From positions 32,001-96,000 of IMG/VR virus record IMGVR_UViG_3300027763_000036: a stretch of 64,000 nucleotides of DNA; one strand, 5' to 3'. The translations under genes were made by a program, and so were the position numbers. Source of the stretch: a virus. This document shows positions 7,787-62,693 of the stretch, piece after piece. Position 1 is the first letter of the stretch; each line of letters begins with the position of its first letter. The notes beneath the pieces were generated by a model. That model did not search any database. It was not told the DNA's origin and saw only the letters and a list, made by a program, of their open reading frames with translations.

Positions 7787-7793
7787 ATAAGAA

Positions 7794-8495: not shown

Positions 8496-8498
8496 AAA

Positions 8499-9017: not shown

Positions 9018-9018
9018 T

Positions 9019-9047
9019 TTTGATATTGTAAATATTTTTACTATATT
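9019..9047 (+). promoter_or_regulatory. Putative promoter TTTG-N19-TATATT
   Basis: Intergenic; TTTA-N-TATATT core shared with other intergenic sites; resembles the Bacteroidota -33/-7 layout. Confidence 0.4.
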
Positions 9048-9081
9048 ATATTATATATATGTTTAACTAAAATTTAAAAAA

Positions 9082-43948: not shown

Positions 43949-46900
43949 TGATAACATGTAGCATTAATAATATTGAAATTGTAAAGGCTTTATATGCAGA
44001 TGTAAGTGGTGCTCTAAAGAAAGCTCAAGATTCTAAAAAAGACTTTGATCATAAGGACTATATGAAAAAGTTATTCAAAGATCTTTCTGAACAATCATCA
44101 CCAGAAGTAGCTGCTAAATATTTACAGTCTGTACCAAAAATAATCATTGATGCACAAAACAATTATTTTGAAGATCTTTTTGTTAATCTAAATGCTTTAA
44201 GTAAACTAAATCAAGATTTTAAAAATTCTGACACAGGTGTCACAGCTGTAATTAAAGAATTAGGTGATACTTCTAATCTTGGTGAAAAAAAAGATAATTT
44301 ACAGAATAAAAAAAATAATTCGATTAATTTAAATCAAAATCCTGTAGCACCAAAACCAGTAGTAAGATTACCACAAAGATTTAGAACATTAACTCCTTTT
44401 GGTGGTACTTTACAATCTTATATTAAGATTGATCCAAATTTAAAAGAACAATCTATTACTCCTGAAAGTATAAATCAGGAGTTACTCTATATGATTAGAA
44501 CCTTTGATAAGATTAAAGAAATTCAAAATACTACTGATACACTTAATGGAGTTGTTTATGATGGAGTAAAACTTCACTTTAAGTCTATTACTCTTAGTGC
44601 ATATGATAAGCCTGAAAATCAAAAATATTTAGATGCAGATACTAAAGCTTTAATTGCTAAATCAGCAAGTATAATTAATCAAGGTACAGCTCCAAAAGAT
44701 GTTGTTCAAATAACTGAACTTCCTATACTTTTATTAAGTGATATAGATGGTAATGTTCTTTATTTTGATAATAATGGAAACATAACTACTGAAGATTCTG
44801 GTAAGCCAGTATATCAGTTTATGAGAACTGTTAGAAAAGATGGAAATACTTTTTCTGTTACTAATAGATATAATACTGAAGACTTACTAATTACTCCTGA
44901 AGATTTTGCAGATGCAACATATGATGAAGCTATAGATGGTCCAAAAGATAAATATTTAGTATCTGTAAAAGAAATGATGCAAAAAGAAATGTCAGACTTA
45001 TATGACATTCAACAAAGAGTAATTTCTGGACAAGAGATGATACTTCCTATTACAGGAATTAGTAATGGTATACCCGCAAATTTGTCTGCTACAAAAATAA
45101 CTTTGAGCAACTTATTAAATTTGCCAACACTAAATGCAAATCCTATTGGTGTAATTAAAACAATTAGAACAATACCTATTGCACAAGATGGATTTAATAC
45201 TGGTTCAGCTTTTATTCAGTTGAATGGTAATAAATTTTTTATTGAAAGACCTTTAATAACACAAGACTTAGCAGTTGAGATTGCTGATGTTTTAACTAAT
45301 CCTAATATTTCTAATGCTGCAAAACAAGAATATACAGATCAGTTTTTAAAGGGATACTCCACAAATAATTCAAGTAAAAAATTTACCTTAATATATTCTA
45401 AAAATGGTAAATCAATTTACTTTAATATGTTTGAAAAGTTTTATCAAACAGATCCAAAAGATATAAAAGAAAAACTAGACTTACACTCCTCATATTTAAA
45501 AACATTAGATCAATCACAAATTGATAAGTATAAGGAAACAATTATAAAGTATTTAACTAAAGAAGGGACTAAAGCTAATCAAGGAAGAATAAATATAATA
45601 TTTCAAAATGCAGCTTTAGAGAGTGGTAAGTACACAAGGTTAAATGATGCTGGTACTGGATTTAATAGAAATGCTGATTATCATACTTTCCTTACAACTA
45701 CAGATTCTGAAATTTCTTTAACTAATGCTGATCCTGGATTCTATAATTATGTAGTTAATTTTACAACATTTGATACACCTGTTGGAGAGTTTATTAATGC
45801 TGAGAAGAATGAAAAAGATTCTAAGCTTATAGATGCTGAGTTAAATAGAGTAATTGGAAATGCATTATCAAACGAATATAAGGCTAAAGTTAAACAAGAA
45901 GATCCTACTCAACAAAGACCTTATGATAGTTTTTTAGTCACTAGATACTTAAGAGATCAGATATCTACTGTCTATAACAAATCACAGAGCAAAACTTTTG
46001 TGCAAGGTCTTATAGATGCATTAAAGGGTCCGTTATATAGTTACTTGCATTTACGTGACGCACAAATAAAGATTCTTCAGGACAAATTAAATATAACTAA
46101 TTTCCAAACTGTTACACCTGCACCAACTGCTAAGCCTCCTGTTCAAGAGGAAATAGTAGATGTAATAGAAGTTCTAGGAGCAGAATCTCCACAAGACAAT
46201 ACTGTAGTTAATAGAATATTTAATGAAGATACTACAGAAGATGATAGTATATTTTTTGATAGAGCTGGTATTAAAAAAGAGTTTATTAATCCATTAAAAA
46301 TTGTACAAGCTAAGATATGGTGGAATAGTAAAAAAATGGAGCCAATGAGAAAACTCATAGAGTTTGACCGTATGCTTAACATTGTAAACTCAGATAGTTA
46401 TGCAAGATTTATTGTAGCTGGAGCTACTCTTGCTGACACAGGTACATTAGGTACTATATTAGTTAATAAAGAGAAAGGTACAGTATTTCAAAACCTTACA
46501 ATTTATCATGAGGCATGGCACGTATTCTCTCAGTTGTTCTTAACTAAAAAACAAAAGTCAGATTTATATAACGAGCTACTCAATTATACAGATGCTAAAG
46601 GAAATACTCCTTATGCAAAGATGAGTCTTAGAGAATTAGAGGAGATGCTTGCAGAAGATTTCCGTAACTATGTTAAAACAGGTAAAGCAAAACAAGGTGC
46701 TCAAAAAAGAAATAGTTTATTCAGAAAAATAGTTGAGTTCTTAAAACAACTATTTGGTAAAGTATTAAAGAAATTTAAAAAACAAGAAATTGTAATTAAT
46801 AGTCTTAACTCGCCAATGGCAGCAAGATTATTTAATGAATTATACATAGGAGAATTTAATAAGTATTCTCCTAGTATAACTAATCAAATGTTTACTAAGC

Positions 46901-49900
46901 TAGATAGAGGACCAAGACAAATTGAATATCCATCACAAGATGCACTATCTCCTGGAGATGGTATGACAGTGGTATCTTCTATTGATAATTTCTTTGCTGA
47001 AGAAGTAGATAAATTATATCAACAAAGAAAAGCTAAAGGAGAAGACAGAAAAGAAATTAGCTTATCTGTAATAAAGAGTCCTGCACAAAAAGAAGAGTTA
47101 TATAAGAGAGCACGCAAAAGATTTGAAACTGTTCTTGCTCAAGAGCAAGCTAAACTTAGAGCTGTAGAAGGCATAGCAGATTTCAATACCTTAGATACTT
47201 TAGAAGAGATTGAAAGCAATGCTTTTGCTATAATGAAAAATGAGGTATATGACAAAGAAGGAAAGTTGATCCCGGAGAAATCAGGAAAAGACAAATATTT
47301 CTTTTTAACATCTCAGGTTACAAACTTTGATAATCTATCTGCTTCAACTAAAAAAGGAGAAAGAGTAAGGGGAGAAGACTATAAAGATACTATTAGAATT
47401 GTTGGTGATTTTTATAAGCACAAAACAATTAAGAAAGATGGAAGAAGCATAGATATTGTTTTAGTAACAAGACCTCAAGATGCACAAACCCAATTTGATA
47501 ACTATCTAAAAGGAAATGTATGGGATGAATCATCTAAGAAATGGATTCAAGATGCAGGTGGTGCAAAAATCTTTACAAGAATTGAGAAAAAACCTATAGT
47601 AGATAAAGCTAAGATAGATCAAACTCAAGAAGAGATAAGAGATAATGTAAGAGTATTAGAAACTACTCTTAAAAACTGGGGTGATGAGAAGAGTGGTATT
47701 GTACAATACCATATGCAAAATACAGACTTTGATGTTGCTAAAAGAAGATATAGTGTTGATGGAGAATTACTTCCTGAGATAGAAGAATTAAAAGAAGATA
47801 GTAAAGGTGAGGTAAAAGATGAATCAGAAAAAGACCTAGAAAATGACGGAGGCTTAGGACAGGGTAATGAAGGTACTGGAGATGTATCTTTACAACAAAC
47901 AATGAGCAAAGAAACTATATTTGTTTTAAAGACATTGTTTAAAGTAAACTCTGATGGTACTATTCCAACAGATAGATTTGGAATTAAACAAAGAGCGGAT
48001 TTTAGTAAAACATTTGCTATAGTTGCAAAAACTATTGGTGGTATTCGTGATAGACAAAAGGCTTATGAAAAATTAAGATTAGAGTCTGAAAAGTTTCCAG
48101 AGCTAAAACAATTGTTTGAAACTAAGTTTCCTAATCCAAATAAGTCAGGAGCTACTGTTAATACATTTGAATTTGACTTAGCTAGAAACTTTTTCCAAGA
48201 TTTTGGTAAACCACATATTGATTATTTACAACTCTATGGTTACTATGATAAAGAAGTTGTAAATGATGCAGAAAGATATAACCTAAACTTTGTAGTAAAA
48301 GAATCTGACTTAGCAATAGATAACTTACTAAATAAATGGTCAAACAACTTTGCAACTCTTAAGGGAAATAAATATATCAATGTATCAAGAGATAATATAA
48401 GAAGTTTAAAGTTAGCTGACGTTGTAAAAGATTTTAAATCAAAATCAACTAGTGAATTAGATTTAGCTAAGCAAATTGAGTTTGCTAAAGTATTGGGTAT
48501 TGAGCTTCAGAATAATGATAATGTTAAATCTGAGCTTGAAAGATCTGCATACTATGGTTTACCGTACATATTCAAAATAGTAAATTCAATAAATAATATT
48601 GAGCAAGGGTCTGTTGAAAAAGCTTTATCTAAAGAAAAATCTAGACTTGTAAGTAACTTTAAAGAAAACCCACTTAAGGTTTTAACAGATGGTTTTAGTG
48701 GATCTTTAATAGGTGATAAGGGAACCGTAAAACAATTAACTCAGTTAAAAAGATTAGCAGAGTTACAAACTACATATGGTTATGATAGTTCAAGTACTGC
48801 TATAATTAGATCTAACCAAAACGTTGGTTATAAGGAAGTTAACTGGAGTTCTGGTCATGCAAGAGCATATGCATTAAATGAAGTAGAGAATTTTAATCAG
48901 CTTTGGGAAGATCCAAGATATAACTACATGTCACATCTTAATCCTGAGATAAACACTCATGTTAGACATTTAAAAATCATATCTTCTTTATTCCCTAATT
49001 TAGAAAAGAAAAGTGAAAATACTTCAGTAAAATTCTTTGCACAAGATGGATTTGCCATTACAGATGAAAGAGGTGACAGTAGTGGTAATACAACTACTGA
49101 GTTAGATCCATTATCTAAATTTATATTTGAATTTCATTCATTTAGTTTAGCTGGTGTAGCTGAACTACCAAGAACATCTGAAAAGAAATTCTCATGGGGC
49201 TTTAAAGTAGACGGAGGTATAAACCATCCAGATGTTAATTTTGAATCTGCAAAAGATCCAAATCTATATATTGACATTGACATGTTCAAAACTGTAGCTG
49301 GAGAACAATACGCAAGAGCTGGGTTTTTATATGGATATATTCAAGGTGAGTTTGATAGAATTAAAAAGTTCAGAGGTCCAGAAAAAGAAAAGTATTTAAA
49401 CTTTACTGGGTATAATGAGCCTGTAATTGAAGATGGTGAAAAAATGTTTTCCGGACAAACCTTTGTAGCATTCAAAGGGGTGTTAAGTGAAGGAACAAAA
49501 AAGAGGTTATACGCATTAGCAGATCAACAAGCAGACATAGAAATCTTAGACTATGTTAAAAATGTTGATAAAGAACTTGGTAAAATGATCAAGGATGATA
49601 TAACAACATTCTTCAATGAAAAAACAAATGAGATTAAAGAACTTTACTTTAATAAAATTCCTTACATATCTAGATCATTACTTGAGAAGTTTGGTATAGA
49701 TAAGGAGTCTCTTAAAGATGAAGAAGTATTTAAATCTTATTTAGCAAAACCAGAGATCGTAAATGCTTTACTTAAAGCTTATACATATAATGACTTTATC
49801 CATAAATATGAGACAAGCATTATTATGTTTGGAGATCATGCTCAATGGAATCACGGAAAAGAGGATTGGTCAAAAAGAATTCCTGGACTTACTTCAGATG

Positions 49901-52900
49901 GTATTGGTTTTATGTTTGATAATCAAACTCAAAACTTTATAAATGATGTATTCAATAAAGAAACATATGCTTCTAAATTAACTGAGAAAGAAGGTAATAA
50001 AATAAACTATAATACTTTTCAGTTTAGTGAAAAAATGAATGCAGCAGTTATAAAAGATGCTGAAAGAAGTTCTATATATGTTGATGATTATGAAAAAATG
50101 TGGGAGAAAGACTATCTAAAAAGATTTAGTCCAGAAGTTGCAAAAGAAAAAGCAGCAGCAGATGCTAAGCCCTACAGAGAAATGAAAGAGTCAGATGGTA
50201 TTGCATTTGTCACATTAGATGCATACCGAACACTTAAGAAAGTAGGAAGAGGTTGGAGTTTGGGTGAAGATGCACTTTATAAGAAAATTATAAATGGTGA
50301 AGAAATATCAAGTAAAGATGTAAAAGAGTTCTATTCTATTTTCAAGTTACATTATTTTGGAACAATAGAAAATGATTTATTACCTGTGACTGGTATGTTT
50401 AAGTTTTCGGTTATGCCAATTATACCTGGAGTAAATGCAATTCCAGGTAATGAGCTTGATAAGCTTCACAAAAAAATGATGAGACAAAATACTCAGCTTG
50501 TTTTGTTTGCATCCGGTTCAAAAGGGTCACATATAACTTCAGATGGTAAAACAGATAATATTTATACTAATAAAGAAGATAAATATATTAATACTGAAGT
50601 AGATGAAAAAGGTAATGATGTATTTCAGTTTACTAAAAATCCATTCTACTTAGCTAACTTTAAAGAGGTTACTGTAATGAATAACTCTTTTAAAGAACAT
50701 CTTCCAATAGCTACACAAACAAGAGCTATTACAATAGATAATTTATTTGAAGATGGAGATTTAAAAAATCCAGACAATAAACCTTTTGTAGATGAGTACA
50801 CAAATACAATCCGTGAATACTCTAAAGTATTAAAAGAAGATTTATTAAATGGATTAGGAATTGAGCTTATAGATGGTAGAGTAATTGGTGACTTTACAAG
50901 GTTTGTTGAGATTATTAGGGATGAGATGTCTCAAAGAGATACCCCACCACATTTAATTAAACTAGTAAATACCAATCTTAAGGGACAAATTGCAATGGAT
51001 TTATCATTGCATCCTGAATCAGATAGTATTGAAAAATTACTTGTTAGTTTAATTCAAAGAGGAGTTATTAAACAACAAACTAAAGGTGAGCCATTAGTTC
51101 AATCTCCAGCAACATTTACAAATGGTATTTGGGATACACCATATTTAGATCTTACAGAATTAAAAGAAATACAAAAGTATTTAGGAACTAATACTCTTCC
51201 TTTCTATTTAGCAAATGGAGAAACTAGAACTGAAGAAATGAAAGTTGCTATTGCCTTACAAGGAGACTTTAGAAACTTACTTAATGCTAATGATCTAGAA
51301 GGAAATAAGATTGAGACTATTGAAAGATTAAATCAGTTGATAAAGAATCCTAAGTGGTTTGCAAAAAATAAAAAGTCATTAACATTGTTCGGGCCTAGAA
51401 TCCCTAATGATGCACATAACACTATTGAGGCAGCTACCGTTTGGCATTTCTTACCAGAGTCATTTGGTAATACTATTATTACACCAACTGAGATTGTAGC
51501 AAAAGCAGGTTCTGACTTTGATGGGGATAAGTTATTTATGTCCATGCCTAATATAGACAGTGAAGGAAACTTTATTAATAAAGGAGTAGAAAACTTTGAC
51601 AAAGTTTTAGAAGAGACTAAAGAACTTGAGAAGAAAAAGAAACTTCCTAAAGATAGACCTACTTCTAAACAGATAATTGAACTACAGAAAAAGTATTTAC
51701 AGAACAGATACTTACAAGCATCTGTAGAAATATTAATGCTTCCTGAAAATGCTATAACATTAACTAAGCCTAATGGTACATATCTAGTAGATAGATATGA
51801 GGAAAATGTAACAGAATTTAGAACAGGATATGATAAGTTTAAAAATGTTGGTGGAAGACCATCTGATGTAAACACAAAAGGTGTAAAGATTCCAAATACG
51901 TCAAACCATTTTACAGCAGGATATAACCTTTATGTACATGATGCAAACTTATCACTTGAACCATCACTAGGTATTTTAGCAAAACTTACCAAGTCTATTC
52001 CTATGTATAAAGCTGCTGGTGCAAAAATGCCAGCAACATATAATGCAGGTATCACACTAAAGGTTCCATTAGATGTTAGATTTAATAAGAATATTACAGT
52101 AAATTCTAAAGGTGAAACTGTTATATCTATTGGTGCTGAAAATAATGTGGCTGGTGAAAATATTTCTGACACAACTTCTCACTCATTACAAGGGGTATTG
52201 GATAGAGCTAAAGCTACATTCCCATTTGAATTAAAGTTGGTTCCAGAAGCAATGGATGTTTATGGTTATCTAACAAGAGCAGGGGTAGATCAAGAACAAA
52301 TAGTTTACTTGCTTAATCAACCACTAGTATCTCAGTATCTTGATTTACAAAAGATAAATGAGTCTTCTATAAACAATGCTTTGTTTGGAAAGCAGAAAAA
52401 ATTTATGATTTCTCAAAATTTGTTTATTGAAAATCTTAAGAAGACTTTAACTGAAGATCAATTAAAAAGGCTGGTTCTTGAGATAAATAAAAATAAACTT
52501 GCCGCTATAATGAAATCATTACCTGAAGACTTAGAACTTCAAGTAATTATTCCTCGTAAAGAGGGTGTTTATACTGTGGCTGCTTTAAGAAATCAATTAA
52601 ATGCTTTTGTAAAAACTGGTGAAGGAATAAATCCTAATTCTATTTCATCTATTTTGATAGAGTTACCGGATGAAACAAAAAAAGAAATTTATAGTTATGT
52701 TGTTCCTACTTTTGATAAAGCTGGATATTTATTGAGCCAAGGAAATGCATATTTCTTAATTGATTATATTGCAAAAAACAAACTTGCTAATAAAGATGAA
52801 ATTCAAACATCTGATTTGGTAGATATAATGAAGAAACAAGATTCATCTAGCTTAAAAGCACTGATGATCTTTGCACATTATGTTGAATTAGAGAGACAGT

Positions 52901-55900
52901 ATTCAAGAATGAATGATCTTGAAAAATCATTTACTCCGGATACTGCAAAAGTTTCTACTACTCAAGAAGCAATAATTAGAAAGAAAAAATATAAAACTTT
53001 CTTTAGTGCAATACAAACTAATGTTCCAGAATATTTAAAACAATCAGAAGAAATAGATCAAGATTTCTTAAATAAGTTAATGAATGAATCTGTTGTATCT
53101 TCATTAATATTTGATGATTTAACAATTGATTTATTAAAACCATTATTTCAAACTAAACTTGATGATGTCATTGTTAATTATATAGATGATGCATTAAAAG
53201 AAAATAGAGGAGAAATTTCTAATGCTTTTGGTGTGGGTGCTGATGGAAGAGCTGAGTTCATAAGACAGTATGGAAATACTTTAGTAAACTTTATATATCA
53301 AAACTATTTATCATATTCTTCTGATGCAACTGGTAAGTTAGCAAATTATCCAGAAGCAATCAATGGTAAAGAAGTAGTGGTAGATAATACTATGGATGTT
53401 CTTGTAAAAATTGAAGAAGATAAAATTCTTATAAACACTAGAATTATTGAATTTGATTTTGCAAATAAATCTTTCTTGGAAAATAATGATACTGAAGCAG
53501 CTTATGTAAACAGAAATTATGATACTTTTAAAGTAGGTCAAGATCCATTTAAAAATCTAAGATCTTTCTATAGATATCATATTGAGTTAGCTCTATTAGA
53601 AGAAAATAATTCAATAGACACATTAGCAGATAGTGAATATTATTATTTTGGACAAATGGTTGCAAAAAATGATGGTAATATAGAACGAGCATATATTCAG
53701 TATATATCTGAAAGAGCACTATCAAATAGTTATAACCCATATTATATCATGGGTAGAACTAAATATAGTTATACCAACAACGTATTAGAGTTAATTGATT
53801 CATTGGAAAATTACCCAGCACTATTTGATAGATTCCCAATCCTTACTCAAATTTCTCCACAAAGAAACAGAGAAGGATTTAGAATAATTAGATTGAATAA
53901 TAGATCAGATGTAAAAGGAGCACTAGCTCAAGACTACTACAATCAGATTAGACAGCTTGGAGATATCTCTATCCAAAAATTAGATAACCCAAGTAACAAT
54001 CCTGTAATTACATCTAAGGATAAAAGAATAAGTGAGATATTTAATTTATTCTCAATCATGATGTACTATCAGCATGGTGTAGGTAAATCAGGAACAAGCT
54101 TTAATAGTGCTTTAGATTCATCTCAATTTAAAGATATTATCATGCCTTCTACACAGGCGTTTATGGGTAATTACATTAATCCAAGTAAAACTTCTAGAGA
54201 AGAAATACAATCATTATTAAATGCTGTATATCAACAAACTGTTTCTAGACAGAGGTTTAAAATAATGTTAGGTACTAAGAATGAATATGCAAATGCAGAC
54301 ATAGAAGCTATAGCAAATGAACTTGATAAAAAAAGAACAGAAGGAGAAATAGAAGAGTTTGATGAGGATGAAGGTTCACAAAAGATTCCTTCAGAATTTA
54401 AAAAAGGTGAGAAACTTATTTTAGATGAAGATGTTAAAGCATTTAAAAGATATTTGATATCATCTAATGGAGTTAAGCCTTCTAAGTTTACAACTGTACA
54501 AACTAAGTTTTCAGAGTTCTATAATGGTAGACAACAGGGTATGCCAAATACTGCTGCCTGGATGCTTAATAGCTCTAATCTATATGACATGGTAGAAATA
54601 AGTCAAGACTCTGACTTATTAGGTATTGTATACTATGAAAATGTAGATCTAGAAACAGGATACCAAATGATTAAAAAGGGTGAGGGTCCTACTCAACCTA
54701 CTGGAGTTAAAGAAGTTATTAAAAATGAAAAAGGACTGATTATAATTAATAATGCAATTCCTTTACAAAAAACTCAACAAATAGTAAATGATAGTAAAAA
54801 ATTTATAGAAGAAACTTCTTTTAAACAAACAGGTGGTTCAGTATCTTGGGGTTATGGAATGCAATGGATAAGATCAGCCGGATTAACAGCAAAACAAAAA
54901 GAAGGTGTTGTAATTGGTAAACAGATAGGTGGTCAAGAAGTAACTCAAGAAATGGTAAATGATCTTATTGCTGGAGTTGACCCTAAAAAAATAAAAGGTT
55001 TACCATTATATGTATATACTATTTATGACAAAAATGGTAATAGGTTACCTAATATACCAAGTGACATAATACTAACATTGCAAGAACAAGGAATTGATTT
55101 ATCTCAATATGATGCTAGTTATAATTCTGTATATGATAAGAATGACAAAGGTAGTTTAATTGTACATCAAGATAATACTGAGTTTAATACTTCACCAATT
55201 ATTACTGTTTCTTTGGGTAGACCAATGAAATTTATTACATATCAATTAAAAGATTCTAATAATTATAGTTTTGGTACTAATTCTAAAAATAAATATGAAT
55301 TAACCTTAAATACTATTTCTAATAAACTTGTATCTCAAAAGCTTGCTCCTGAATTAAAAAGACAAAAAAATTTTAGAGGTGATGAAGTTATAGCATATGG
55401 TGAATTAACTCCTGGAAATTTAGCTAAATATGCTAAAATGGTAGGAATGGAATCTGAAGCATTAGATGTTTTAGCAAATTCAATAGAAAAAATTGAAGAA
55501 CATATGTTAACAAATGGTGCAGTTTTAGTTTTTTCTAATGAAAATAGAAATGTGTTTCATGAGATTATTTTTGATGAGGAAACAGATAAATTACCAATGC
55601 CTCAAGGTTTTCCTGATTTAACAATAAATAAATCTTATACAGGGATGGGCAGACCAGATAAAATGGTTAATACAAGAGATTATAGGGTTGTATTAACTTT
55701 AAGAAAAGTAACTGGTGCTACTGTTAATAATATTGATATACAAAAACTTACATCTACTCAACCTACTAAAACACTTACTACTCAAGATTCTGAAAACATA
55801 TACTCTCAATTAGGCACTTTAACTTCAAATATTGTCATATCCAATATAAAAACTAAAGATGGTAAGTATGATAGGACCGCTAATATAAAAGAAGCAAAAG

Positions 55901-57264
55901 TTAAAGGTAGAGTGTACACTATGGAAGTAGATAGTGATGTAAAAAGCTTCTCAAATCCTTGGGCTAGTTTTAATAGAAAAGGAACAATTAAAACAAATTC
56001 TACAAAAGAAGCTGTTTTAAATTACATTGATTGGCTTACTACAGATAAATTTATAAATGTTAAACCAGAAAGAAGAGCTTTTATTTTAGATATTTTAAAA
56101 TCTGGTAAATTAAAAGGAAGACAACTTCAATATTATGCTGAATTAGGAGAGCCATCTCATGCTACAGCTTTAGATTATTTAATTAATAAATATAACTGGG
56201 GGCAACCTACGTCAACATCTAAAACACCAGTATTTGATTCTCTTCCTGGTAAATCTACTACACCTACTATGACTTATGCTGGTATAGGAAGTAGACAAAC
56301 ACCACAAGAAGCTCTTGATCTTATGCCTCAAATTGCTAAGTATCTTGATAATTTAGGTTATACATTAAGAAGTGGTGCAGCAGAGGGTGCAGACACAGCT
56401 TTTGAAAAAGGTGCAACAAAAAAAGAAATATTTAAAGGATTTGACAGAACAGGTCAAAGAGAAATAAATGTTGCTAATGAAATACATCCTGATCTTCAGG
56501 GTGCTATGAATGCATCTAAATCTAAAAAAATAAAATCAAGATTAGCTGAAGGTGCAACACAAGAAGAAGCTGAAAAATCAGGTGAAAGATCTGCATGGGC
56601 TGTTCAAAACTTAATGGCAAGAAATACTAATCAAATATTTGGTGTTAATTTAGATACACCGGTAGATTTTGTATTGTTCTGGGCACAAGAAATTCCTGGT
56701 TCAATTAGACCAAAAGGTGGTACAGGACAAGCTGTAGAAATGGCTAGAAGAAAAGGTATACCTACTATTAATTTAGCAGATAAAAATTGGAGAGAACAAC
56801 TTAAAGCTGTACTTTCTAATAAACCATCTACTCAACCTACTGAAGTTAAACCAGGTGGAGAACAATCTTCTATCAATGATGACATGGCTGAGTACACTAA
56901 ACTTGTTGAACAAAACAACGGAGCTCAACCAAAAACATTTACTGTAGGTACAAGAACTTGGACTCTTAATAAATTTGGTAACTATGACTGGTCTGACCCA
57001 ACAACTGGGCAAATCTACATGAGAAACATTAACATGGAGACTGGAGTAGCTGTACCTGAACCATTAATGAATGAGCCTGTAGATCCGGCATTAGTAGAAG
57101 AAAGCTTAAACTTTATAAATAGTAATAGAAAATTATTAGCTTTGGATCATAAACTTGCTGATATGGGTATTGATATAAATGATTTCCTTAAGCAAGTAGA
57201 GCAAATAAAAACAATGGAAGATTATTTCAAAGCTAAAAAAACAATAGATAAGTTATGTCAATAG
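43948..57264 (+). CDS. Giant virion RNA polymerase (double-psi beta-barrel) with zincin and accessory C-terminal domains
   Basis: 4438 aa; PRIP...GSDFDGDK (DFDGD at 51514-51528), ESDG and FKFS motifs; HEAWH at 46507-46521 with EEMLAE; AlkB-like, DUF4326-like and SLOG domains near the C-terminus. Confidence 0.88.
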   Translation: MITCSINNIEIVKALYADVSGALKKAQDSKKDFDHKDYMKKLFKDLSEQSSPEVAAKYLQSVPKIIIDAQNNYFEDLFVNLNALSKLNQDFKNSDTGVTAVIKELGDTSNLGEKKDNLQNKKNNSINLNQNPVAPKPVVRLPQRFRTLTPFGGTLQSYIKIDPNLKEQSITPESINQELLYMIRTFDKIKEIQNTTDTLNGVVYDGVKLHFKSITLSAYDKPENQKYLDADTKALIAKSASIINQGTAPKDVVQITELPILLLSDIDGNVLYFDNNGNITTEDSGKPVYQFMRTVRKDGNTFSVTNRYNTEDLLITPEDFADATYDEAIDGPKDKYLVSVKEMMQKEMSDLYDIQQRVISGQEMILPITGISNGIPANLSATKITLSNLLNLPTLNANPIGVIKTIRTIPIAQDGFNTGSAFIQLNGNKFFIERPLITQDLAVEIADVLTNPNISNAAKQEYTDQFLKGYSTNNSSKKFTLIYSKNGKSIYFNMFEKFYQTDPKDIKEKLDLHSSYLKTLDQSQIDKYKETIIKYLTKEGTKANQGRINIIFQNAALESGKYTRLNDAGTGFNRNADYHTFLTTTDSEISLTNADPGFYNYVVNFTTFDTPVGEFINAEKNEKDSKLIDAELNRVIGNALSNEYKAKVKQEDPTQQRPYDSFLVTRYLRDQISTVYNKSQSKTFVQGLIDALKGPLYSYLHLRDAQIKILQDKLNITNFQTVTPAPTAKPPVQEEIVDVIEVLGAESPQDNTVVNRIFNEDTTEDDSIFFDRAGIKKEFINPLKIVQAKIWWNSKKMEPMRKLIEFDRMLNIVNSDSYARFIVAGATLADTGTLGTILVNKEKGTVFQNLTIYHEAWHVFSQLFLTKKQKSDLYNELLNYTDAKGNTPYAKMSLRELEEMLAEDFRNYVKTGKAKQGAQKRNSLFRKIVEFLKQLFGKVLKKFKKQEIVINSLNSPMAARLFNELYIGEFNKYSPSITNQMFTKLDRGPRQIEYPSQDALSPGDGMTVVSSIDNFFAEEVDKLYQQRKAKGEDRKEISLSVIKSPAQKEELYKRARKRFETVLAQEQAKLRAVEGIADFNTLDTLEEIESNAFAIMKNEVYDKEGKLIPEKSGKDKYFFLTSQVTNFDNLSASTKKGERVRGEDYKDTIRIVGDFYKHKTIKKDGRSIDIVLVTRPQDAQTQFDNYLKGNVWDESSKKWIQDAGGAKIFTRIEKKPIVDKAKIDQTQEEIRDNVRVLETTLKNWGDEKSGIVQYHMQNTDFDVAKRRYSVDGELLPEIEELKEDSKGEVKDESEKDLENDGGLGQGNEGTGDVSLQQTMSKETIFVLKTLFKVNSDGTIPTDRFGIKQRADFSKTFAIVAKTIGGIRDRQKAYEKLRLESEKFPELKQLFETKFPNPNKSGATVNTFEFDLARNFFQDFGKPHIDYLQLYGYYDKEVVNDAERYNLNFVVKESDLAIDNLLNKWSNNFATLKGNKYINVSRDNIRSLKLADVVKDFKSKSTSELDLAKQIEFAKVLGIELQNNDNVKSELERSAYYGLPYIFKIVNSINNIEQGSVEKALSKEKSRLVSNFKENPLKVLTDGFSGSLIGDKGTVKQLTQLKRLAELQTTYGYDSSSTAIIRSNQNVGYKEVNWSSGHARAYALNEVENFNQLWEDPRYNYMSHLNPEINTHVRHLKIISSLFPNLEKKSENTSVKFFAQDGFAITDERGDSSGNTTTELDPLSKFIFEFHSFSLAGVAELPRTSEKKFSWGFKVDGGINHPDVNFESAKDPNLYIDIDMFKTVAGEQYARAGFLYGYIQGEFDRIKKFRGPEKEKYLNFTGYNEPVIEDGEKMFSGQTFVAFKGVLSEGTKKRLYALADQQADIEILDYVKNVDKELGKMIKDDITTFFNEKTNEIKELYFNKIPYISRSLLEKFGIDKESLKDEEVFKSYLAKPEIVNALLKAYTYNDFIHKYETSIIMFGDHAQWNHGKEDWSKRIPGLTSDGIGFMFDNQTQNFINDVFNKETYASKLTEKEGNKINYNTFQFSEKMNAAVIKDAERSSIYVDDYEKMWEKDYLKRFSPEVAKEKAAADAKPYREMKESDGIAFVTLDAYRTLKKVGRGWSLGEDALYKKIINGEEISSKDVKEFYSIFKLHYFGTIENDLLPVTGMFKFSVMPIIPGVNAIPGNELDKLHKKMMRQNTQLVLFASGSKGSHITSDGKTDNIYTNKEDKYINTEVDEKGNDVFQFTKNPFYLANFKEVTVMNNSFKEHLPIATQTRAITIDNLFEDGDLKNPDNKPFVDEYTNTIREYSKVLKEDLLNGLGIELIDGRVIGDFTRFVEIIRDEMSQRDTPPHLIKLVNTNLKGQIAMDLSLHPESDSIEKLLVSLIQRGVIKQQTKGEPLVQSPATFTNGIWDTPYLDLTELKEIQKYLGTNTLPFYLANGETRTEEMKVAIALQGDFRNLLNANDLEGNKIETIERLNQLIKNPKWFAKNKKSLTLFGPRIPNDAHNTIEAATVWHFLPESFGNTIITPTEIVAKAGSDFDGDKLFMSMPNIDSEGNFINKGVENFDKVLEETKELEKKKKLPKDRPTSKQIIELQKKYLQNRYLQASVEILMLPENAITLTKPNGTYLVDRYEENVTEFRTGYDKFKNVGGRPSDVNTKGVKIPNTSNHFTAGYNLYVHDANLSLEPSLGILAKLTKSIPMYKAAGAKMPATYNAGITLKVPLDVRFNKNITVNSKGETVISIGAENNVAGENISDTTSHSLQGVLDRAKATFPFELKLVPEAMDVYGYLTRAGVDQEQIVYLLNQPLVSQYLDLQKINESSINNALFGKQKKFMISQNLFIENLKKTLTEDQLKRLVLEINKNKLAAIMKSLPEDLELQVIIPRKEGVYTVAALRNQLNAFVKTGEGINPNSISSILIELPDETKKEIYSYVVPTFDKAGYLLSQGNAYFLIDYIAKNKLANKDEIQTSDLVDIMKKQDSSSLKALMIFAHYVELERQYSRMNDLEKSFTPDTAKVSTTQEAIIRKKKYKTFFSAIQTNVPEYLKQSEEIDQDFLNKLMNESVVSSLIFDDLTIDLLKPLFQTKLDDVIVNYIDDALKENRGEISNAFGVGADGRAEFIRQYGNTLVNFIYQNYLSYSSDATGKLANYPEAINGKEVVVDNTMDVLVKIEEDKILINTRIIEFDFANKSFLENNDTEAAYVNRNYDTFKVGQDPFKNLRSFYRYHIELALLEENNSIDTLADSEYYYFGQMVAKNDGNIERAYIQYISERALSNSYNPYYIMGRTKYSYTNNVLELIDSLENYPALFDRFPILTQISPQRNREGFRIIRLNNRSDVKGALAQDYYNQIRQLGDISIQKLDNPSNNPVITSKDKRISEIFNLFSIMMYYQHGVGKSGTSFNSALDSSQFKDIIMPSTQAFMGNYINPSKTSREEIQSLLNAVYQQTVSRQRFKIMLGTKNEYANADIEAIANELDKKRTEGEIEEFDEDEGSQKIPSEFKKGEKLILDEDVKAFKRYLISSNGVKPSKFTTVQTKFSEFYNGRQQGMPNTAAWMLNSSNLYDMVEISQDSDLLGIVYYENVDLETGYQMIKKGEGPTQPTGVKEVIKNEKGLIIINNAIPLQKTQQIVNDSKKFIEETSFKQTGGSVSWGYGMQWIRSAGLTAKQKEGVVIGKQIGGQEVTQEMVNDLIAGVDPKKIKGLPLYVYTIYDKNGNRLPNIPSDIILTLQEQGIDLSQYDASYNSVYDKNDKGSLIVHQDNTEFNTSPIITVSLGRPMKFITYQLKDSNNYSFGTNSKNKYELTLNTISNKLVSQKLAPELKRQKNFRGDEVIAYGELTPGNLAKYAKMVGMESEALDVLANSIEKIEEHMLTNGAVLVFSNENRNVFHEIIFDEETDKLPMPQGFPDLTINKSYTGMGRPDKMVNTRDYRVVLTLRKVTGATVNNIDIQKLTSTQPTKTLTTQDSENIYSQLGTLTSNIVISNIKTKDGKYDRTANIKEAKVKGRVYTMEVDSDVKSFSNPWASFNRKGTIKTNSTKEAVLNYIDWLTTDKFINVKPERRAFILDILKSGKLKGRQLQYYAELGEPSHATALDYLINKYNWGQPTSTSKTPVFDSLPGKSTTPTMTYAGIGSRQTPQEALDLMPQIAKYLDNLGYTLRSGAAEGADTAFEKGATKKEIFKGFDRTGQREINVANEIHPDLQGAMNASKSKKIKSRLAEGATQEEAEKSGERSAWAVQNLMARNTNQIFGVNLDTPVDFVLFWAQEIPGSIRPKGGTGQAVEMARRKGIPTINLADKNWREQLKAVLSNKPSTQPTEVKPGGEQSSINDDMAEYTKLVEQNNGAQPKTFTVGTRTWTLNKFGNYDWSDPTTGQIYMRNINMETGVAVPEPLMNEPVDPALVEESLNFINSNRKLLALDHKLADMGIDINDFLKQVEQIKTMEDYFKAKKTIDKLCQ
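54689..56841 (+). repeat. Dispersed 14-nt direct repeat CTACTCAACCTACT (x3) plus one degenerate copy
   Basis: Exact copies at 54689-54702, 55754-55767 and 56828-56841; partial CAACCTAC at 56203-56210; all encode (T)QPT linkers. Confidence 0.85.
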
Positions 57265-60200
57265 GTAGTTGTCCAAATGTAAATAGTCAAGAATGGAAAG
57301 ATATACTTGAACTAAATAATGGTAATGTTGAAAGAGCCAGAGAAGAATGGGATCTTCTTTATGGTTTTGATCAATCATTAAATAGTGATCCAGATTTATC
57401 TGATATTCCTGTAGAAGTTTTTGAAGATGAAACTGTAGATGAATTCATAGAAGAGCCAACTTTTGATAGAGCTCTTAAAAAAGTAAAAATCTTTTTAAAG
57501 ACAAAACAATATGAACTAAATAGAAAAAAAGTTCAGAATCAAAAAGCAAAACAAGCGGCATTAGCAAGAATCATTAAGAACTTAAATGAACTTGAAGGAG
57601 TAGAAGCTATTAATGCTTTTATTGAACATGCTTATACAGAAGGCATGGAGACAAGAAAGCTATTAAATGAAGCTCTAAAAAGAAGTAGAGAAGGAACAAT
57701 TGATAGTAAAGAACTTTTGGATATCTTGTCTGCTGCTAATCAGTTTGCTAATGGTTATAGTATATTAGATGAAATAAGCAAAGAAGATATTGACAGATAC
57801 TTTTCTAAACCTGTTGCATCAAATAAACCTGAGTCAGAATTAACACCTCAAGATAAATTAACAAGAGCTATTGCTAATAGAAATAATATTAGAACAGTAT
57901 TTGATGAAAAAGTAATAGATGTAATTGCTGAGACTCTAGTTGATTATAGATCTACAAGAGGTACATTAACTATTCAAGAAAATATAAAAGCTTTTGAAGA
58001 AAGAATAGAAAATGCTAGAAATGATACATCTTTAACTGATAAAGCAAGAGCAAGAGTATTAGAAAATAATGAGAAGCAACTAGCAAAGTGGAAAGCACTT
58101 ATGTTAGATAAAGAATCATTAGGTAATTTGTTAAGAGAAACATCTAAGAATGAAAATATATTTGATGCTTATCTTAATCCATTAATAAGTTCAGGAGATG
58201 CTCCTTTATCTTTATTTGCTAAGATGATTAAAACTCAGTTTGAAAGCACAAAAGTTGAAGATATCCAAGAAAGAAATCAAGGTGTAGACCAGCTTAAAGA
58301 ATTTGCTAGTAAAACAGGTAGGGGTTTTAGTAATGTTGCAAAATTAAATGAAGGCTTATATGAGTTTTTGGAGATTGCAAGAAGAGATGTTAGAGGTAAA
58401 GTAATTAGAGATCCAAAAACAGGTGAGGTAGTTATTGATAAGGTAGTTTCTTTTGTTCAAAAATATGACATGAACAAATATCAACAAGCTGAACGAGAGT
58501 TTTATAAAAATAATCCTAAACCAAAACTTAAAGAAGATGCATCTGATATAGAAAAAAAGCAATATAATGATGCATTGGATGATTGGTATAAAACAAGAAA
58601 CAGATGGTATAAAGCTAATACACAGCCCAAGTCTCAAGAAGAGATAAACAAAATAAAAAATGAGAAAGAAAAAGATTATATTCAAGGTATTATAACAAAT
58701 GAAGAATACCAAGAGTGGTTAAAACGCGTAGAGCGTGATACAAAAAGGGGTAAAGAATTTTATGGGGAGCTTGCAGAACCTAATAATAGTTACTTAAATA
58801 ATAACTGGTTAAATTTATATGATAAAGACGGCAAGCCAAAAAATGCAGAAGGTTTGTATCACAAATATCTTGTAGATAAATATCTTGCTGCTCAAGAATT
58901 ATTACCGGATGGTCAGAGAAGAGGATACATATTACCATCTATAGAGATGGATGAAGCAGAAAGACTACAAAGATTTGGTGTAAAAGCTACTGTTAAAAGT
59001 AGAGTCTCTGAAACATTTAGAAGAAAGAAATATGATCAAGAATTATTTGGAGAGGAAGCTGGTCAAACAGAAGAGATAGATAGAAATGTTTATGGTGTAG
59101 GTAGTTCTTCAGGGGAGAAGTTTGATATTATCCCAACTTACTTTACACAATTCATGGATGCTGATGATGTTACTGTAGATTTATTATCTTCAGTTTTAAG
59201 GTTTGATGCAATGGCTAGAAGATACAATGCATTAAATGAAGTTCAGTCAGAGATATATGCTTTCCAAAAAGTAATTGGTAATAGAAAGATTGCTGCCAAA
59301 GACAGTAAGGGTAGACCTGTAATGGATGCTTTTGCAAAGAAGATGGGTTATGAGGAATACATAAAAGAAAATGGAATGGATTATTCATCTTTTCATGTTA
59401 ATGAGTTTATTAATATGGTTATTAAAGGTGAATCACAAAAATCACAGCAATTTATGAATGTAGAGTTATCTAAAATAACTAATACATTAATTTCTGTATC
59501 TGCAATTACTACTCTTTCAATGGACTTACTCAAGGGTGTTGCTAATAATTTACAAGGTAATATTCAGCTTGTTATTGAATCAGCTGGTTCTGAGTTTTTT
59601 AGTTTAAAGAATTATGGAAAAGCCAAAGCAGTTTATTTATCTAAAGTTGGTGGATGCATATCAGACTTTGGTAAGCCATATGCAGAAAGTTGGTTAGGTG
59701 GTTTAATTGATTACTATGATGCTATACAGGGTCAGTTTAAAGATGAATACGGTAGAGATGTTTCTGCTACTGTAGCTCAAAAACTTTTCAGAACTAATAC
59801 TCTTTTCTGGAATCAGCACTTTGGAGAACATGAGGTACAAGTTACAGCCATGTTAGCATTAATGGATGCTACAAAAGTTATTGATAAAGAAACTGGAAAA
59901 GAAATTTCCCTACTTCAGGCGCATGAAAAATATGGAACATTCTTATTTGATGTTGTTACAGATGAGAATGGTAATAAAACTAAAAACTATAAAGTTCAAA
60001 TTAGAGCTAACAAGACATTAGAAAACCCAGAAGGTGATCTTATAGATTTTGATGAGAAGCAAAGAATAGAACACACAAATATACTACATGCATTAAATAA
60101 AAGAATGCATGGTGTATACAATGACTTTGATAAATCAGTACTTCAGAAATACTCTGCTGGTAGATTAGTAATGATGTATAGAAAGTTTATGGTTCCTGCT

Positions 60201-60806
60201 GTAAAAAGAAGATACAAGAATCTTGGTTTTGATGATGAGCTTGGTACAGCAACTGAAGGTATATATCAGACATTCTATAGAACATTAATGAAAGATGTTA
60301 GAACATATAAGTTCAATGTTACTAAACAGTGGGCTACTTATACTCCTTTTGAGAAAGCACAAATAAGAAAAGTTGTTGCTGAGTTAACTATAATTGCAGG
60401 CTTTATGGCCTTAATACTTGCTTTATCAGCATTAGGTGGTGGAGATGGAGATGATGAAGAAAATGCAATTAAGAAAAGTTGGATGTATAACTTTATGCTA
60501 TATGAGGCAATAAGGATGAGATCAGAAACTATTCAGTTCTTACCTGGAGTTGGTCTTAGAGATTGGTATAGAACTGTAAAGTCTCCATCAGCAATGACAG
60601 GAACATTAGATAGATTCATTAGATTCTCTAATCAGTTTTTCTTTACTTGGGATCCAGAGAAATTAAATTATGAAAGAGATCAAGGAGTTTGGAAGAAAGG
60701 AGACAATAAGTCTTGGGCTTATTTCTTAAAGCTTATGGGTTATTCAGGATACACTCTTACCCCAGGAGAAGCAGTGAAAGCCTTTGAAGGTACATACAAT
60801 AGATAG
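57255..60806 (+). CDS. Large virion/ejected protein with a C-terminal hydrophobic helix
   Basis: 1183 aa; CPN.NS.EW N-terminus; LTIIAGFMALILALSAL (60384-60434) followed by GGGDGDDEE. Confidence 0.7.
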   Translation: MSIGSCPNVNSQEWKDILELNNGNVERAREEWDLLYGFDQSLNSDPDLSDIPVEVFEDETVDEFIEEPTFDRALKKVKIFLKTKQYELNRKKVQNQKAKQAALARIIKNLNELEGVEAINAFIEHAYTEGMETRKLLNEALKRSREGTIDSKELLDILSAANQFANGYSILDEISKEDIDRYFSKPVASNKPESELTPQDKLTRAIANRNNIRTVFDEKVIDVIAETLVDYRSTRGTLTIQENIKAFEERIENARNDTSLTDKARARVLENNEKQLAKWKALMLDKESLGNLLRETSKNENIFDAYLNPLISSGDAPLSLFAKMIKTQFESTKVEDIQERNQGVDQLKEFASKTGRGFSNVAKLNEGLYEFLEIARRDVRGKVIRDPKTGEVVIDKVVSFVQKYDMNKYQQAEREFYKNNPKPKLKEDASDIEKKQYNDALDDWYKTRNRWYKANTQPKSQEEINKIKNEKEKDYIQGIITNEEYQEWLKRVERDTKRGKEFYGELAEPNNSYLNNNWLNLYDKDGKPKNAEGLYHKYLVDKYLAAQELLPDGQRRGYILPSIEMDEAERLQRFGVKATVKSRVSETFRRKKYDQELFGEEAGQTEEIDRNVYGVGSSSGEKFDIIPTYFTQFMDADDVTVDLLSSVLRFDAMARRYNALNEVQSEIYAFQKVIGNRKIAAKDSKGRPVMDAFAKKMGYEEYIKENGMDYSSFHVNEFINMVIKGESQKSQQFMNVELSKITNTLISVSAITTLSMDLLKGVANNLQGNIQLVIESAGSEFFSLKNYGKAKAVYLSKVGGCISDFGKPYAESWLGGLIDYYDAIQGQFKDEYGRDVSATVAQKLFRTNTLFWNQHFGEHEVQVTAMLALMDATKVIDKETGKEISLLQAHEKYGTFLFDVVTDENGNKTKNYKVQIRANKTLENPEGDLIDFDEKQRIEHTNILHALNKRMHGVYNDFDKSVLQKYSAGRLVMMYRKFMVPAVKRRYKNLGFDDELGTATEGIYQTFYRTLMKDVRTYKFNVTKQWATYTPFEKAQIRKVVAELTIIAGFMALILALSALGGGDGDDEENAIKKSWMYNFMLYEAIRMRSETIQFLPGVGLRDWYRTVKSPSAMTGTLDRFIRFSNQFFFTWDPEKLNYERDQGVWKKGDNKSWAYFLKLMGYSGYTLTPGEAVKAFEGTYNR

Positions 60807-60818
60807 TGAAGAAACCAT

Positions 60819-60850
60819 AAAAAAAAGGGGGATTATCTTTTCCCCCTTTT
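60819..60850. terminator. Bidirectional terminator between convergent modules
   Basis: A-run, ggggga-ttatcttt-tccccc stem, T-run; loop contains the stop codon of the 60833 gene. Confidence 0.8.
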
Positions 60851-61024
60851 AACTTTTTTAAGTTTACTTACATCAATTCCTACAAGATCACTTGTGTCAA
60901 GTTTAAACTTACCAAGTGTACCTTCTTTATCTTTGCTTACAAGAACATAGCTATTGTTTTCTGAAACATAGTTGATATACAGTTCCTGACCGTTAAATTC
61001 AATTTTCATTTTGTTTTTTTTCAT
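60833..61024 (-). CDS. Small hypothetical protein
   Basis: 63 aa; overlaps the MazG-like gene end; terminates in the terminator. Confidence 0.6.
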   Translation of the reverse strand: MKKNKMKIEFNGQELYINYVSENNSYVLVSKDKEGTLGKFKLDTSDLVGIDVSKLKKVKRGKR

Positions 61025-61409
61025 ATGATTGGTTTATAAATTTACTAAGATTTGGTTTAAAATACTCGGGTCCTTTTAATATTTTTCCATCTTCTCTAAG
61101 AATAGGTTGTCCGTCTGGACCCAACTTACTCATGTTACTAGCTTGTATCTCATTGAAGACATCTATTATTATATCTTGCATACCATGTTTTAGAATAGTA
61201 CCGCAGAGAATATATAACTGATCTCCAAGAGCATCACCTATTTCTACAAGAGAGTTTTTCTCACAAGCTTCTAGGTATTCATCATTTTCTTCTTTCATTA
61301 GAGCATGTCTTAACACATACTCGCTCTGCTCAAGTGGTTGTGGCCACTTACCATCTTTTTGTTTGAATGCTTTGTGGAACTCAGCCACAGCTTTTAATTG
61401 TTCTTTCAT
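60999..61409 (-). CDS. MazG-like / PRA-PH-family NTP pyrophosphohydrolase
   Basis: EE..EY...E..DALGD.LY and SNMSKLG.DG.PI.REDGKILKGP motifs. Confidence 0.85.
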   Translation of the reverse strand: MKEQLKAVAEFHKAFKQKDGKWPQPLEQSEYVLRHALMKEENDEYLEACEKNSLVEIGDALGDQLYILCGTILKHGMQDIIIDVFNEIQASNMSKLGPDGQPILREDGKILKGPEYFKPNLSKFINQSYEKKQNEN

Positions 61410-61420
61410 GTTGTAAAATT

Positions 61421-61452
61421 AAAAAAAAAGGGGACAACTTGCGTCATCCCCT
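61421..61452 (-). terminator. Rho-independent terminator (minus strand)
   Basis: aggggatgac-gcaa-gttgtcccct followed by a long T run on the minus strand. Confidence 0.8.
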
Positions 61453-61484
61453 CTCTTATACTTCAAAATTGGGAATTGAAGGTC

Positions 61485-62693
61485 TTAGAAAAAGTCTGAT
61501 GAATCATCATCATTATCTTCTTCAATATTGAAAATTAAATCATCAAAGTTAGCTTCACTAGTAAACTCTTGATTTGCTATATCTAATTCTGCTTGATCTC
61601 TTTCTTCAGGAGAAACCTCTAGACTCATAAAAGAAGCATTGTCACCCATATACACTTGATTTTCATCTGGAGCATAAGTAGGTGCGTCATCTTCATCTGA
61701 TTCTAATGGTAAATTCATCCAATCATTTAGATCTTCTTCATCTTCTGGATCTTCAGTGTAGTTATTAACAACTTCATTGTGAAAATCTATTGCTTCAAAA
61801 GTATTCCCAGCAGGGTCAGTATAAGTTATTTGAGTTGCCTCAGCTTCTTTAGCCTCTTCTTCAGCTATTACATCAAAGATAGTTATCTGATTAGGATTAA
61901 CTAAAGTTTCTGTAGCTTCAATAACTTCTTCCTCTTGAGGTGCAACTACAGGAATTACCTGTGCAGGTGCACTGCACTGTTGGAAATTATTTACAGTAGA
62001 AATAAAATAATGCAAGACTCTTTGATCTTCCATCCAAGTCTTAGGATGTGAATGCTGTAATGCAATAGTCACAAAGTTATAGAATGCCCACAAACTATTG
62101 CTATCAGCATAAACATGACTTGGTCTATCCATTTGTTGTCTTATAATACTAGCCTGCTCTGTAGTAAGAATCTGATACTCCGCAAATAGGATACCTAGTA
62201 GCTGAGCTTGTTTTCTCTTATTTAGAGTAATGCCCTTCATAGATTCTTTATCAGAACATAGCTGATTATAATACATGTGAGCATTAGCTATTTGATCTTG
62301 TATGGTTTTAACTGTCTCTTCATCTGCAGTACCAGTATGTTTACGAGCCCAGCTTCCCATATCTCCACATACCATAGTAGTACCTGTTAGATTAATATAA
62401 CCACCCACACCACACTTGAATCTTACTTGTTTGTTATAACTGTTTGTCCATGCAAACATCATAGATAGCTCAGGGTCATTATTAAAATTTAATTTATAAA
62501 TCCCATGAGCAATATTCCCGTCAGCAGTACATCTGTACTCTTCACTAACAACTCCAAAACCTGCAGCAGCAAGCTCAGTATATACATAATCCATTACGGA
62601 TTGGTGACTAATTACAGTGTAAGTAGCACCATGATTTGGTAAAGGCACACTAACTAAGTGCGCCTTTGTACATTCAGCAATTTTCTTTGGCAT
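61485..62693 (-). CDS. DUF932-like protein with a long acidic C-terminal tail
   Basis: Y.VISH, NSYNK..RF....G, RKHTG and SLW.FYN.VT motifs. Confidence 0.65.
   Translation of the reverse strand: MPKKIAECTKAHLVSVPLPNHGATYTVISHQSVMDYVYTELAAAGFGVVSEEYRCTADGNIAHGIYKLNFNNDPELSMMFAWTNSYNKQVRFKCGVGGYINLTGTTMVCGDMGSWARKHTGTADEETVKTIQDQIANAHMYYNQLCSDKESMKGITLNKRKQAQLLGILFAEYQILTTEQASIIRQQMDRPSHVYADSNSLWAFYNFVTIALQHSHPKTWMEDQRVLHYFISTVNNFQQCSAPAQVIPVVAPQEEEVIEATETLVNPNQITIFDVIAEEEAKEAEATQITYTDPAGNTFEAIDFHNEVVNNYTEDPEDEEDLNDWMNLPLESDEDDAPTYAPDENQVYMGDNASFMSLEVSPEERDQAELDIANQEFTSEANFDDLIFNIEEDNDDDSSDFF

Follow-up and report, generated by a model that had tools for sequence, protein, structure and literature searches.

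The closest described systems are the polyvalent proteins of phages and conjugative elements, presented by Iyer, Burroughs, Anand, de Souza and Aravind in 2017 (PMC5512222), in which N4-like virion polymerases were already counted as one polyvalent module. Mosaicism is noted in that paper, the word 'linker' is absent from it, and recombinational variability of cassettes is raised only as a possibility, for one kinase locus (PMC5512222). In crassviruses, RNA-polymerase-associated proteins are virion cargo that is delivered to the host, and gp47, gp49 and gp50 of phage crAss001 are cargo proteins of this kind (PMC10172136). Here we describe a locus that is related to both. It lies in a stretch of 64,000 nucleotides (hereafter the window; all positions refer to it unless stated otherwise), which corresponds to bases 32001-96000 of a 113.5-kb virus genome, 97% complete (IMG/VR record IMGVR_UViG_3300027763_000036). 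An open reading frame (ORF) of 4438 amino acids on the + strand, 43948-57264, encodes the giant RNA polymerase of a freshwater crAss-like phage, which is probably injected together with the DNA. The last ~860 residues of this protein form an array of independent enzyme domains.

We consider it likely that this tail is a domain array held together by in-frame DNA joints, at which relatives recombine domains in and out. Three cassettes, all on the + strand, make up the array in the window: an AlkB-type 2-oxoglutarate and Fe(II)-dependent (2OG-Fe(II)) oxygenase domain with an insert (cassette 1, 54703-55750), an unnamed domain of ~145 amino acids (cassette 2, 55768-56199) and a SLOG/DprA-like domain (cassette 3, 56226-56826). 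The joints are recognised by a 14-nucleotide repeat, CTACTCAACCTACT, of which the 113.5-kb genome contains three exact copies, at 54689, 55754 and 56828 on the + strand. All three share the frame of the polymerase ORF and read xCT ACT CAA CCT ACT, the resulting peptide [P/S]TQPT lying at residues 3581, 3936 and 4294. The 12-nucleotide core occurs only at these three sites in the whole genome and not once on the opposite strand; the repeats are all direct, with no inverted copies. An earlier note on this DNA, made from the letters alone, had reported three exact in-frame copies, a match of 23 nucleotides with one mismatch between copies 1 and 3, a match of 17 exact nucleotides between copies 2 and 3, and a degenerate copy at 56203. 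Each of these observations was reproduced, the degenerate copy sharing an 8-nucleotide core and encoding QPTSTS. The joints, again on the + strand, are thus placed at 54689-54711 (copy 1, PTQPTGVK), 55751-55767 (copy 2, TSTQPT), 56203-56225 (degenerate joint, QPTSTSK) and 56825-56850 (copy 3, PSTQPTEVK). Another copy of the 14-mer, with two mismatches, is located at 56255-56268 in the leader of cassette 3, where it encodes STTPT in frame; this stretch moves along with the SLOG cassette and serves as a joint in no sampled relative.

Relatives (designated by L numbers) were found by searches that used as anchors the C-terminal domain of the protein and the conserved stretch preceding repeat 1, as well as by searches with single cassettes. 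The arrays of 17 non-redundant relatives were annotated against reference cassettes; single-linkage clustering of linker-split segments was dropped, as it merged unrelated domains. The 17 relatives carry 17 different arrays, built from ~18 domain families in no fixed order, with up to five cassettes per relative. Cassettes named by Pfam in these arrays are NADAR, ART-PolyVal (PF18760), 2OG-FeII_Oxy_2 and cpYpsA SLOG, of which ART-PolyVal and NADAR occur in the relatives and not in the window's own array. A P-loop kinase-like module is also present among them, and the label 'ASCH-like' that was given to a cassette of L001, L010 and L013 is unconfirmed, with no Pfam match at E <= 0.01. The same architectures were recovered from independent metagenomes (L010 and L011, L008 and L028, L012 and L036), which argues against assembly artefacts.

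Comparison of close relatives allowed the points of divergence to be located. Near-identical backbones (94-97% nucleotide identity) diverge from the window exactly at repeat 1, at the degenerate copy and at repeat 3. L001 is 96.5% identical to the window in nucleotides over 50948-54706, i.e. until repeat 1, after which an unrelated domain of 130 amino acids replaces cassettes 1 and 2; identity of 96.8% is regained between the degenerate copy and repeat 3 (56204-56837), and past this repeat an extra module of ~140 amino acids is followed by 88% identity after 56880. L025 is 94% identical over 56813-61685 (4.9 kb), from repeat 3 downstream, and upstream of that repeat it has a single ART-like cassette, unlike the window. 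L002 follows the window at 96.9% identity for 9.5 kb, its contig stopping 15 nucleotides before repeat 1. Contigs L025, L026 and L027 start at or beside a linker, and four contigs, including L002, break within ~30 nucleotides of one; these breaks suggest that variants of the array co-exist in the samples concerned and made the assembly graph fork.

The same edges delimit cassettes that are shared by otherwise dissimilar phages. Cassette 2 is 90-92% identical in amino acids and ~95% identical in nucleotides to its counterpart in L009, whose polymerase core is 38% identical in amino acids; the identity is bounded by linkers, its left edge lying in the linker region just 3' of copy 2 and its right edge at the degenerate joint. 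Likewise, cassettes in L010 and L013 match the first one of L001 at 90% nucleotide identity, with cores ~38% identical in amino acids. L010 and L013 are themselves 99% identical up to the first linker, unrelated after it, share one common cassette at 98% and are then unrelated again, while L007 and L008 are 99% identical over 992 nucleotides to a linker and unrelated past it. Pair after pair, the crossovers fall inside the shared patch of 12-20 nucleotides. When the unique ends of homology blocks (>=85% identical and >=150 nucleotides) were counted over 18 loci, 21 of the 79 breakpoints lay within 12 nucleotides of the motif [ST][QE]P[ST], ~16 times as many as the 1.3 +/- 1.1 obtained with random positions, which never gave more than 7 in 5000 trials. 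These sequence comparisons show that exchange takes place at the joints and that cassettes move horizontally between divergent phages. The earlier note had proposed to test, in an alignment of the polymerase genes of related phages, whether domain content varies with breakpoints at the repeat, and this is what we found.

The linkers are conserved as DNA and not only as peptides. In the window by itself, identical use of all four codons by the three copies has a probability of 0.0057, given the peptide. The survey was extended to 35 linker instances, with the same dipeptides elsewhere in the same genes for comparison. The first Thr of the linker is encoded by ACT in 28 of 30 cases; Pro-Thr is written CCT ACT in 17 of 20 linkers versus 43 of 143 dipeptides elsewhere, and Pro-Ser is written CCA TCT in 10 of 15 versus 19 of 107. 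The conservation of linker codons thus exceeds codon and codon-pair usage, which upholds the claim of the earlier note that identity at synonymous positions reflects conservation at the DNA level. The linker behaves as one DNA element in two variants, rather than as a series of independently encoded peptide spacers.

Based on these observations, we suggest the following mechanism. The array sits between a conserved module, designated X, and its paralogue in the C-terminal domain, with short linkers of Pro, Thr, Gln and Ser between the beads; the clade encodes this linker by nearly the same 12-23 nucleotides, in the variants ACTCAACCTACT and ACTCAACCATCT. Crossover within the linker patches might proceed by recombination or by template switching, the partners being co-infecting relatives or copies within one genome. 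As linker crossovers would preserve the reading frame, whole domains could be added, lost, replaced or reordered, and repeated exchange would possibly homogenise the linkers, making the process self-reinforcing. Flexible linkers would also suit a cargo protein that needs to unfold partially for passage through the tail (PMC10172136). The domains themselves (AlkB here; SLOG types, NADAR, ART, a P-loop kinase-like module and others in relatives) are members of the 'polyvalent' effector repertoire, and are predicted to counter host defences or damage within minutes of the start of infection (PMC5512222, PMC9503650). Their predicted roles are the repair of nucleic acids and the removal of host immune signals derived from NAD or ADP-ribose.

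The proposal of the earlier note that the repeat is a recombination joint for adding, losing or swapping domains is supported by the variation of the arrays, by the breakpoints and by the codons. A further step, which we infer, is that the crossovers are due to the shared linker DNA and have not simply been sifted by selection. A stronger form of the idea, put forward tentatively since the balance seems to tip somewhat against it, is that the linker DNA itself is a selected recombination signal: the clade would maintain a 12-23-nucleotide in-frame joint, the tail would be a programmable array, i.e. the protein-domain counterpart of an integron or of a polymorphic-toxin locus, and co-infecting phages would trade injected counter-defence enzymes at high frequency.

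Several points weigh against recombination at dedicated joints. Every domain is flanked by a linker, and hence any viable in-frame exchange, of whatever kind, would tend to map there. Stretches of 12-23 nucleotides are short for recombination of the RecA type. Moreover, searches of the genome for the RecT, ERF and RecA families found none, the only match among the four recombination families searched being AAA_24, in a Sak4-like protein encoded at 105962-106537 of the genome, outside the window (E 4e-27); its support for recombination is circumstantial, and template switching at microhomology is as plausible as recombination of the annealing type. Two further AT-rich 14-mers also occur three times in the window, and a three-copy 14-mer arose in 16 of 200 triplet shuffles. 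Some domain boundaries of relatives are devoid of the strict motif (e.g. in L012 and L035). The SLOG cassette of L027 (413-1058 of contig Ga0181344_1002892) is chimeric, its ends resembling those of the window's cassette (85% and 95% nucleotide identity) and its middle carrying an insert like that of L021 and L040, so exchange also occurs inside homologous cassettes. The linker instances are copies of one another and not statistically independent, therefore p-values calculated from their codons overstate the case. Finally, the strict motif stands beside the middle domain (the homologue of cassette 2) in only 7 of 71 giant proteins, and distant lineages with the same domains use other spacers rich in Pro, Thr, Ser and Gln (e.g. 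L020); the joint is thus specific to this phage clade.

In view of the AT-rich window, its other triple 14-mers and the shuffles, we rejected the triple occurrence of the 14-mer as significant by itself. The non-random part is the clustering of the copies within 2.1 kb, their shared frame, their position at domain boundaries and the comparative evidence.

Some of these points are what would be expected if the linker were a mere flexible spacer, random illegitimate recombination being followed by selection for in-frame, foldable products, and DNA identity resulting from codon bias and recent common descent with the cassettes. We regard this explanation as unlikely, yet it is the strongest of the alternatives. 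Codon bias is indeed strong (ACT 0.53, CAA 0.82-0.86), the window taken alone gives a chance of only the magnitude stated above for shared codons, triple 14-mers are not rare in it, and both the missing motif at some joints and the different spacers of distant relatives fit a spacer well. On the other hand, codon pairs are 3-4 times more uniform in linkers than where these dipeptides occur in other parts of the genes, the codons of linkers in equivalent positions are unchanged between backbones only 38-45% identical in protein, and the crossovers are found repeatedly inside the shared patch, all of which speaks against a mere spacer.

It is much less probable still that TQP[ST] is mainly a proteolytic processing site, at which the HExxH region of the polymerase protein or a head protease would release the effectors one by one from the array, either ahead of injection or following it, a role that would be compatible with recombination at the same sites. 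The polyvalent model does propose a zincin peptidase domain that releases functional units (PMC5512222), an HExxH motif is present at residue 854, and the peptide motif is kept across backbones only 38% identical. Nevertheless, no peptidase family of Pfam matches the HExxH region, N4 packages its virion polymerase without processing it (PMC5512222), the peptide motif varies (TQPT, TQPS, TEPS, SQPT, QPTSTS) and is absent from other lineages with the same domains, and a constraint at the peptide level leaves the synonymous conservation unexplained. It is hardly credible that the differences between arrays were created by metagenome assembly, in chimeras fused at a short repeat, even though all relatives are metagenomic contigs and L002, L025, L026 and L027 start or end at a linker, because a repeat of 12-23 nucleotides is shorter than usual assembly k-mers, independent samples give the same architectures, the frames are open over thousands of codons, and co-existing variants in one sample would themselves produce contig breaks at the joints. 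A site-specific system similar to a shufflon or integron was set aside, since all copies of the repeat have the same orientation, no stock of silent cassettes is present in the genome and the variation is found between genomes.

The identity of the carrier protein was established by profile comparison. When eight relatives were combined into a profile of the region surrounding DFDGD, this profile matched PDB entry 6VR4, the DNA-dependent RNA polymerase gp66 of phage phi14:2, at E 3e-19, and in the same alignment DFDGD of the window protein (51514-51528, + strand, residue 2523) is paired with DFDID of gp66, the metal-binding DxDxD pattern of a two-barrel RNA polymerase thus being present. A PDB search with the polymerase region as a single sequence gave no match, and the profile was needed. 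This catalytic-type motif and its context are kept in every relative long enough to include them. The homology to gp66 supports the label 'virion RNAP' that the earlier note had applied to the protein, and the homology to crAss-type virion polymerases and crassvirus cargo suggests, by analogy, that the protein is packaged and injected. A zincin-like HEAWH (HExxH) motif is encoded at 46507-46521 (+ strand) in the N-terminal third of the protein; a peptidase role is unproven, as no Pfam metallopeptidase family matches this region. The polymerase gene is neighboured by giant genes. A search of the tail DNA against 50,697 phage records found no match, hence there is no close cultured relative among those records.

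The array is enclosed by two conserved segments of the + strand, the X module just before it (54391-54684; alignment A6) and the C-terminal domain of ~135 amino acids (56857-57261; alignments A1 and A5), which is found in every relative. The X module was matched to the first half of the C-terminal domain (56857-57060) by hhalign with a probability of 98.5% (E 3.4e-15, against alignment A5). The two are therefore paralogous, and a duplicated module, which may serve in docking or packaging, flanks the variable slot on both sides. The terminal Cys (Cys 4437, 57256-57258; ..KLC, ..KYTC) forms an invariant column in A5 in all aligned relatives (L001-L020). In L030, L031 and L032, the C-terminal domain is a separate ORF of 288 amino acids with stop codons upstream in that frame, for which splitting of the gene, a frameshift or another arrangement of the genes could account.

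The earlier note had spoken of three recognisable domains in the array, i.e. AlkB-like, DUF4326-like and SLOG/DprA-like; the first and the third were confirmed and the second was not. Cassette 1 matches Pfam family 2OG-FeII_Oxy_2 (PF13532) at E 1.5e-8 with 35.5 bits, above the curated cut-off of 31.2, and its translation shows HxD, a distal His and RxxxxxR, which we take to be the HxD...H and RxxxxxR residues of the AlkB family. Copies of this cassette are 82% identical in L019 and L020, in a different tail context, and 63% identical in L021 and L022. Cassette 3 matches PHROG 768 at E 1e-44, with 180 of 191 profile positions covered; its score against Pfam DNA_processg_A (PF02481) is 22 bits, below the cut-off of 29.6. 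It is 98% identical in amino acids to its counterpart in L001 and 92% to one in an unrelated giant ORF of L024, and stand-alone SLOG/DprA-like homologues occur in >1200 phage records. Among the segments of the protein, PHROGs names the SLOG cassette only, and Pfam has no name for cassette 2, for the X module, for the stretch with HExxH or for the C-terminal domain.

Cassette 2 is DUF4326-like at best, and is known as a family from its homologues: 669 cluster representatives occur in giant proteins (many of 3000-6800 amino acids) and as small stand-alone proteins. Pfam searches with the window's domain and three relatives gave no match up to E 10, DUF4326 (PF14216) included, and sub-threshold matches to DUF4326 appeared in 2 of 10 stand-alone homologues (E 0.006 and 0.055). 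An AlphaFold2 model built from a 22-sequence alignment reached a predicted local distance difference test score (pLDDT) of 91, compared with 42 for an unusable run with four sequences. Against solved structures, the model gave no Foldseek match at E <= 0.001 and no VIA-align match above Z 2.9; phosphatase-fold chains among the weak Foldseek rows were not counted as evidence. Cassette 2 is an effector-type domain that is common in phages and whose fold has yet to be solved.

The same domains were also met in other settings. In two much larger phages, represented by contigs L021 (141 kb) and L022 (226 kb), an ORF of 1450 amino acids (4816-9168) contains the same three domain types as the window, in the order middle domain, AlkB, SLOG, unlike the window. 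L024, a phage contig of 75.6 kb, has a giant ORF of >3200 amino acids with the SLOG cassette and a homologue of the middle domain, and this ORF also carries a P-loop motif, putatively helicase-like.

Taken as a whole, the protein resembles a toolkit of predicted counter-defence enzymes whose composition changes rapidly. Because injected effectors act before phage gene expression, their repertoire probably decides which host defences the phage survives, and the locus shows how such a repertoire can change fast in a natural phage population: enzyme domains pass between otherwise dissimilar phages at one short joint, and the 13-kb gene is kept intact. It offers a model, open to testing, for the evolvability of an injected protein, as well as a natural catalogue of ~18 candidate early-acting counter-defence or repair modules, several of them without a known family. 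It also provides a simple sequence rule for locating further such arrays in metagenomes.

The locus shares most with polyvalent proteins, which likewise combine in one giant virion-associated polypeptide many unrelated effector domains, including ART-PolyVal and domains processing NAD or ADP-ribose, show strong mosaicism among orthologues and, by prediction, enter the host along with the DNA (PMC5512222); in our case, the association with the virion is presumed from homology. Polyvalent proteins are described as polypeptides with between two and fifteen unrelated domains of effector type and with a fast-changing mosaic architecture; AlkB, the unnamed domain and SLOG/DprA are found together here, and the diversity of arrays agrees with the second trait. 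Of the domains that mark the class, such as ART-PolyVal, MPTase-PolyVal and NADAR, the first and the last were seen in the arrays of relatives, not in that of the window. Unlike the polyvalent proteins described there (PMC5512222), the carrier is a crAss-type two-barrel polymerase, with a C-terminal slot between two paralogous modules and one repeated, DNA-conserved linker. With gp66 of phi14:2 (6VR4) the protein shares a homologous catalytic region in which DFDxD is aligned. It differs in that the PDB chain has 2194 residues and the match is confined to this region, whereas the window protein, of twice that length, adds the HExxH region and the effector tail. In the full-text literature, we found nothing relevant on crAss-type polymerases with such effector tails, nor on conserved linkers as recombination joints in phages.

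A short conserved in-frame sequence at which unrelated modules are exchanged is also a feature of polymorphic toxins (CdiA, Rhs), where it marks the point of recombinational swapping of unrelated C-terminal modules. Those proteins end in a single toxin that is paired with an immunity gene, and silent orphan cassettes often follow downstream, unlike the polymerase tail, in which several internal cassettes stand in series and no immunity gene was seen; orphan copies of the joint are likewise missing from the rest of the 113.5-kb genome, the 12-nucleotide joint being confined to its three sites within the gene. The 'His boxes' of T-even tail fibres and the collagen-like repeats of Streptococcus thermophilus phages are motifs flanking variable segments, and are thought to be frame-keeping recombination hot spots. 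In contrast to such exchange of tail-fibre and receptor-binding modules, which are determinants of host range, the units swapped here are enzymatic effector domains of a presumably injected polymerase. Integron arrays are similar in that ordered, interchangeable units are bounded by a repeated sequence, but they consist of whole genes, not joined in frame, with an integrase and attC sites, whereas our array is composed of protein domains within one ORF and of direct repeats of 12-23 nucleotides (the searches for recombinases covering RecT, ERF, RecA and AAA_24 only). What is known, then, is the polyvalent-protein theme, and what is new is a crAss-type carrier with a repeated, DNA-conserved joint.

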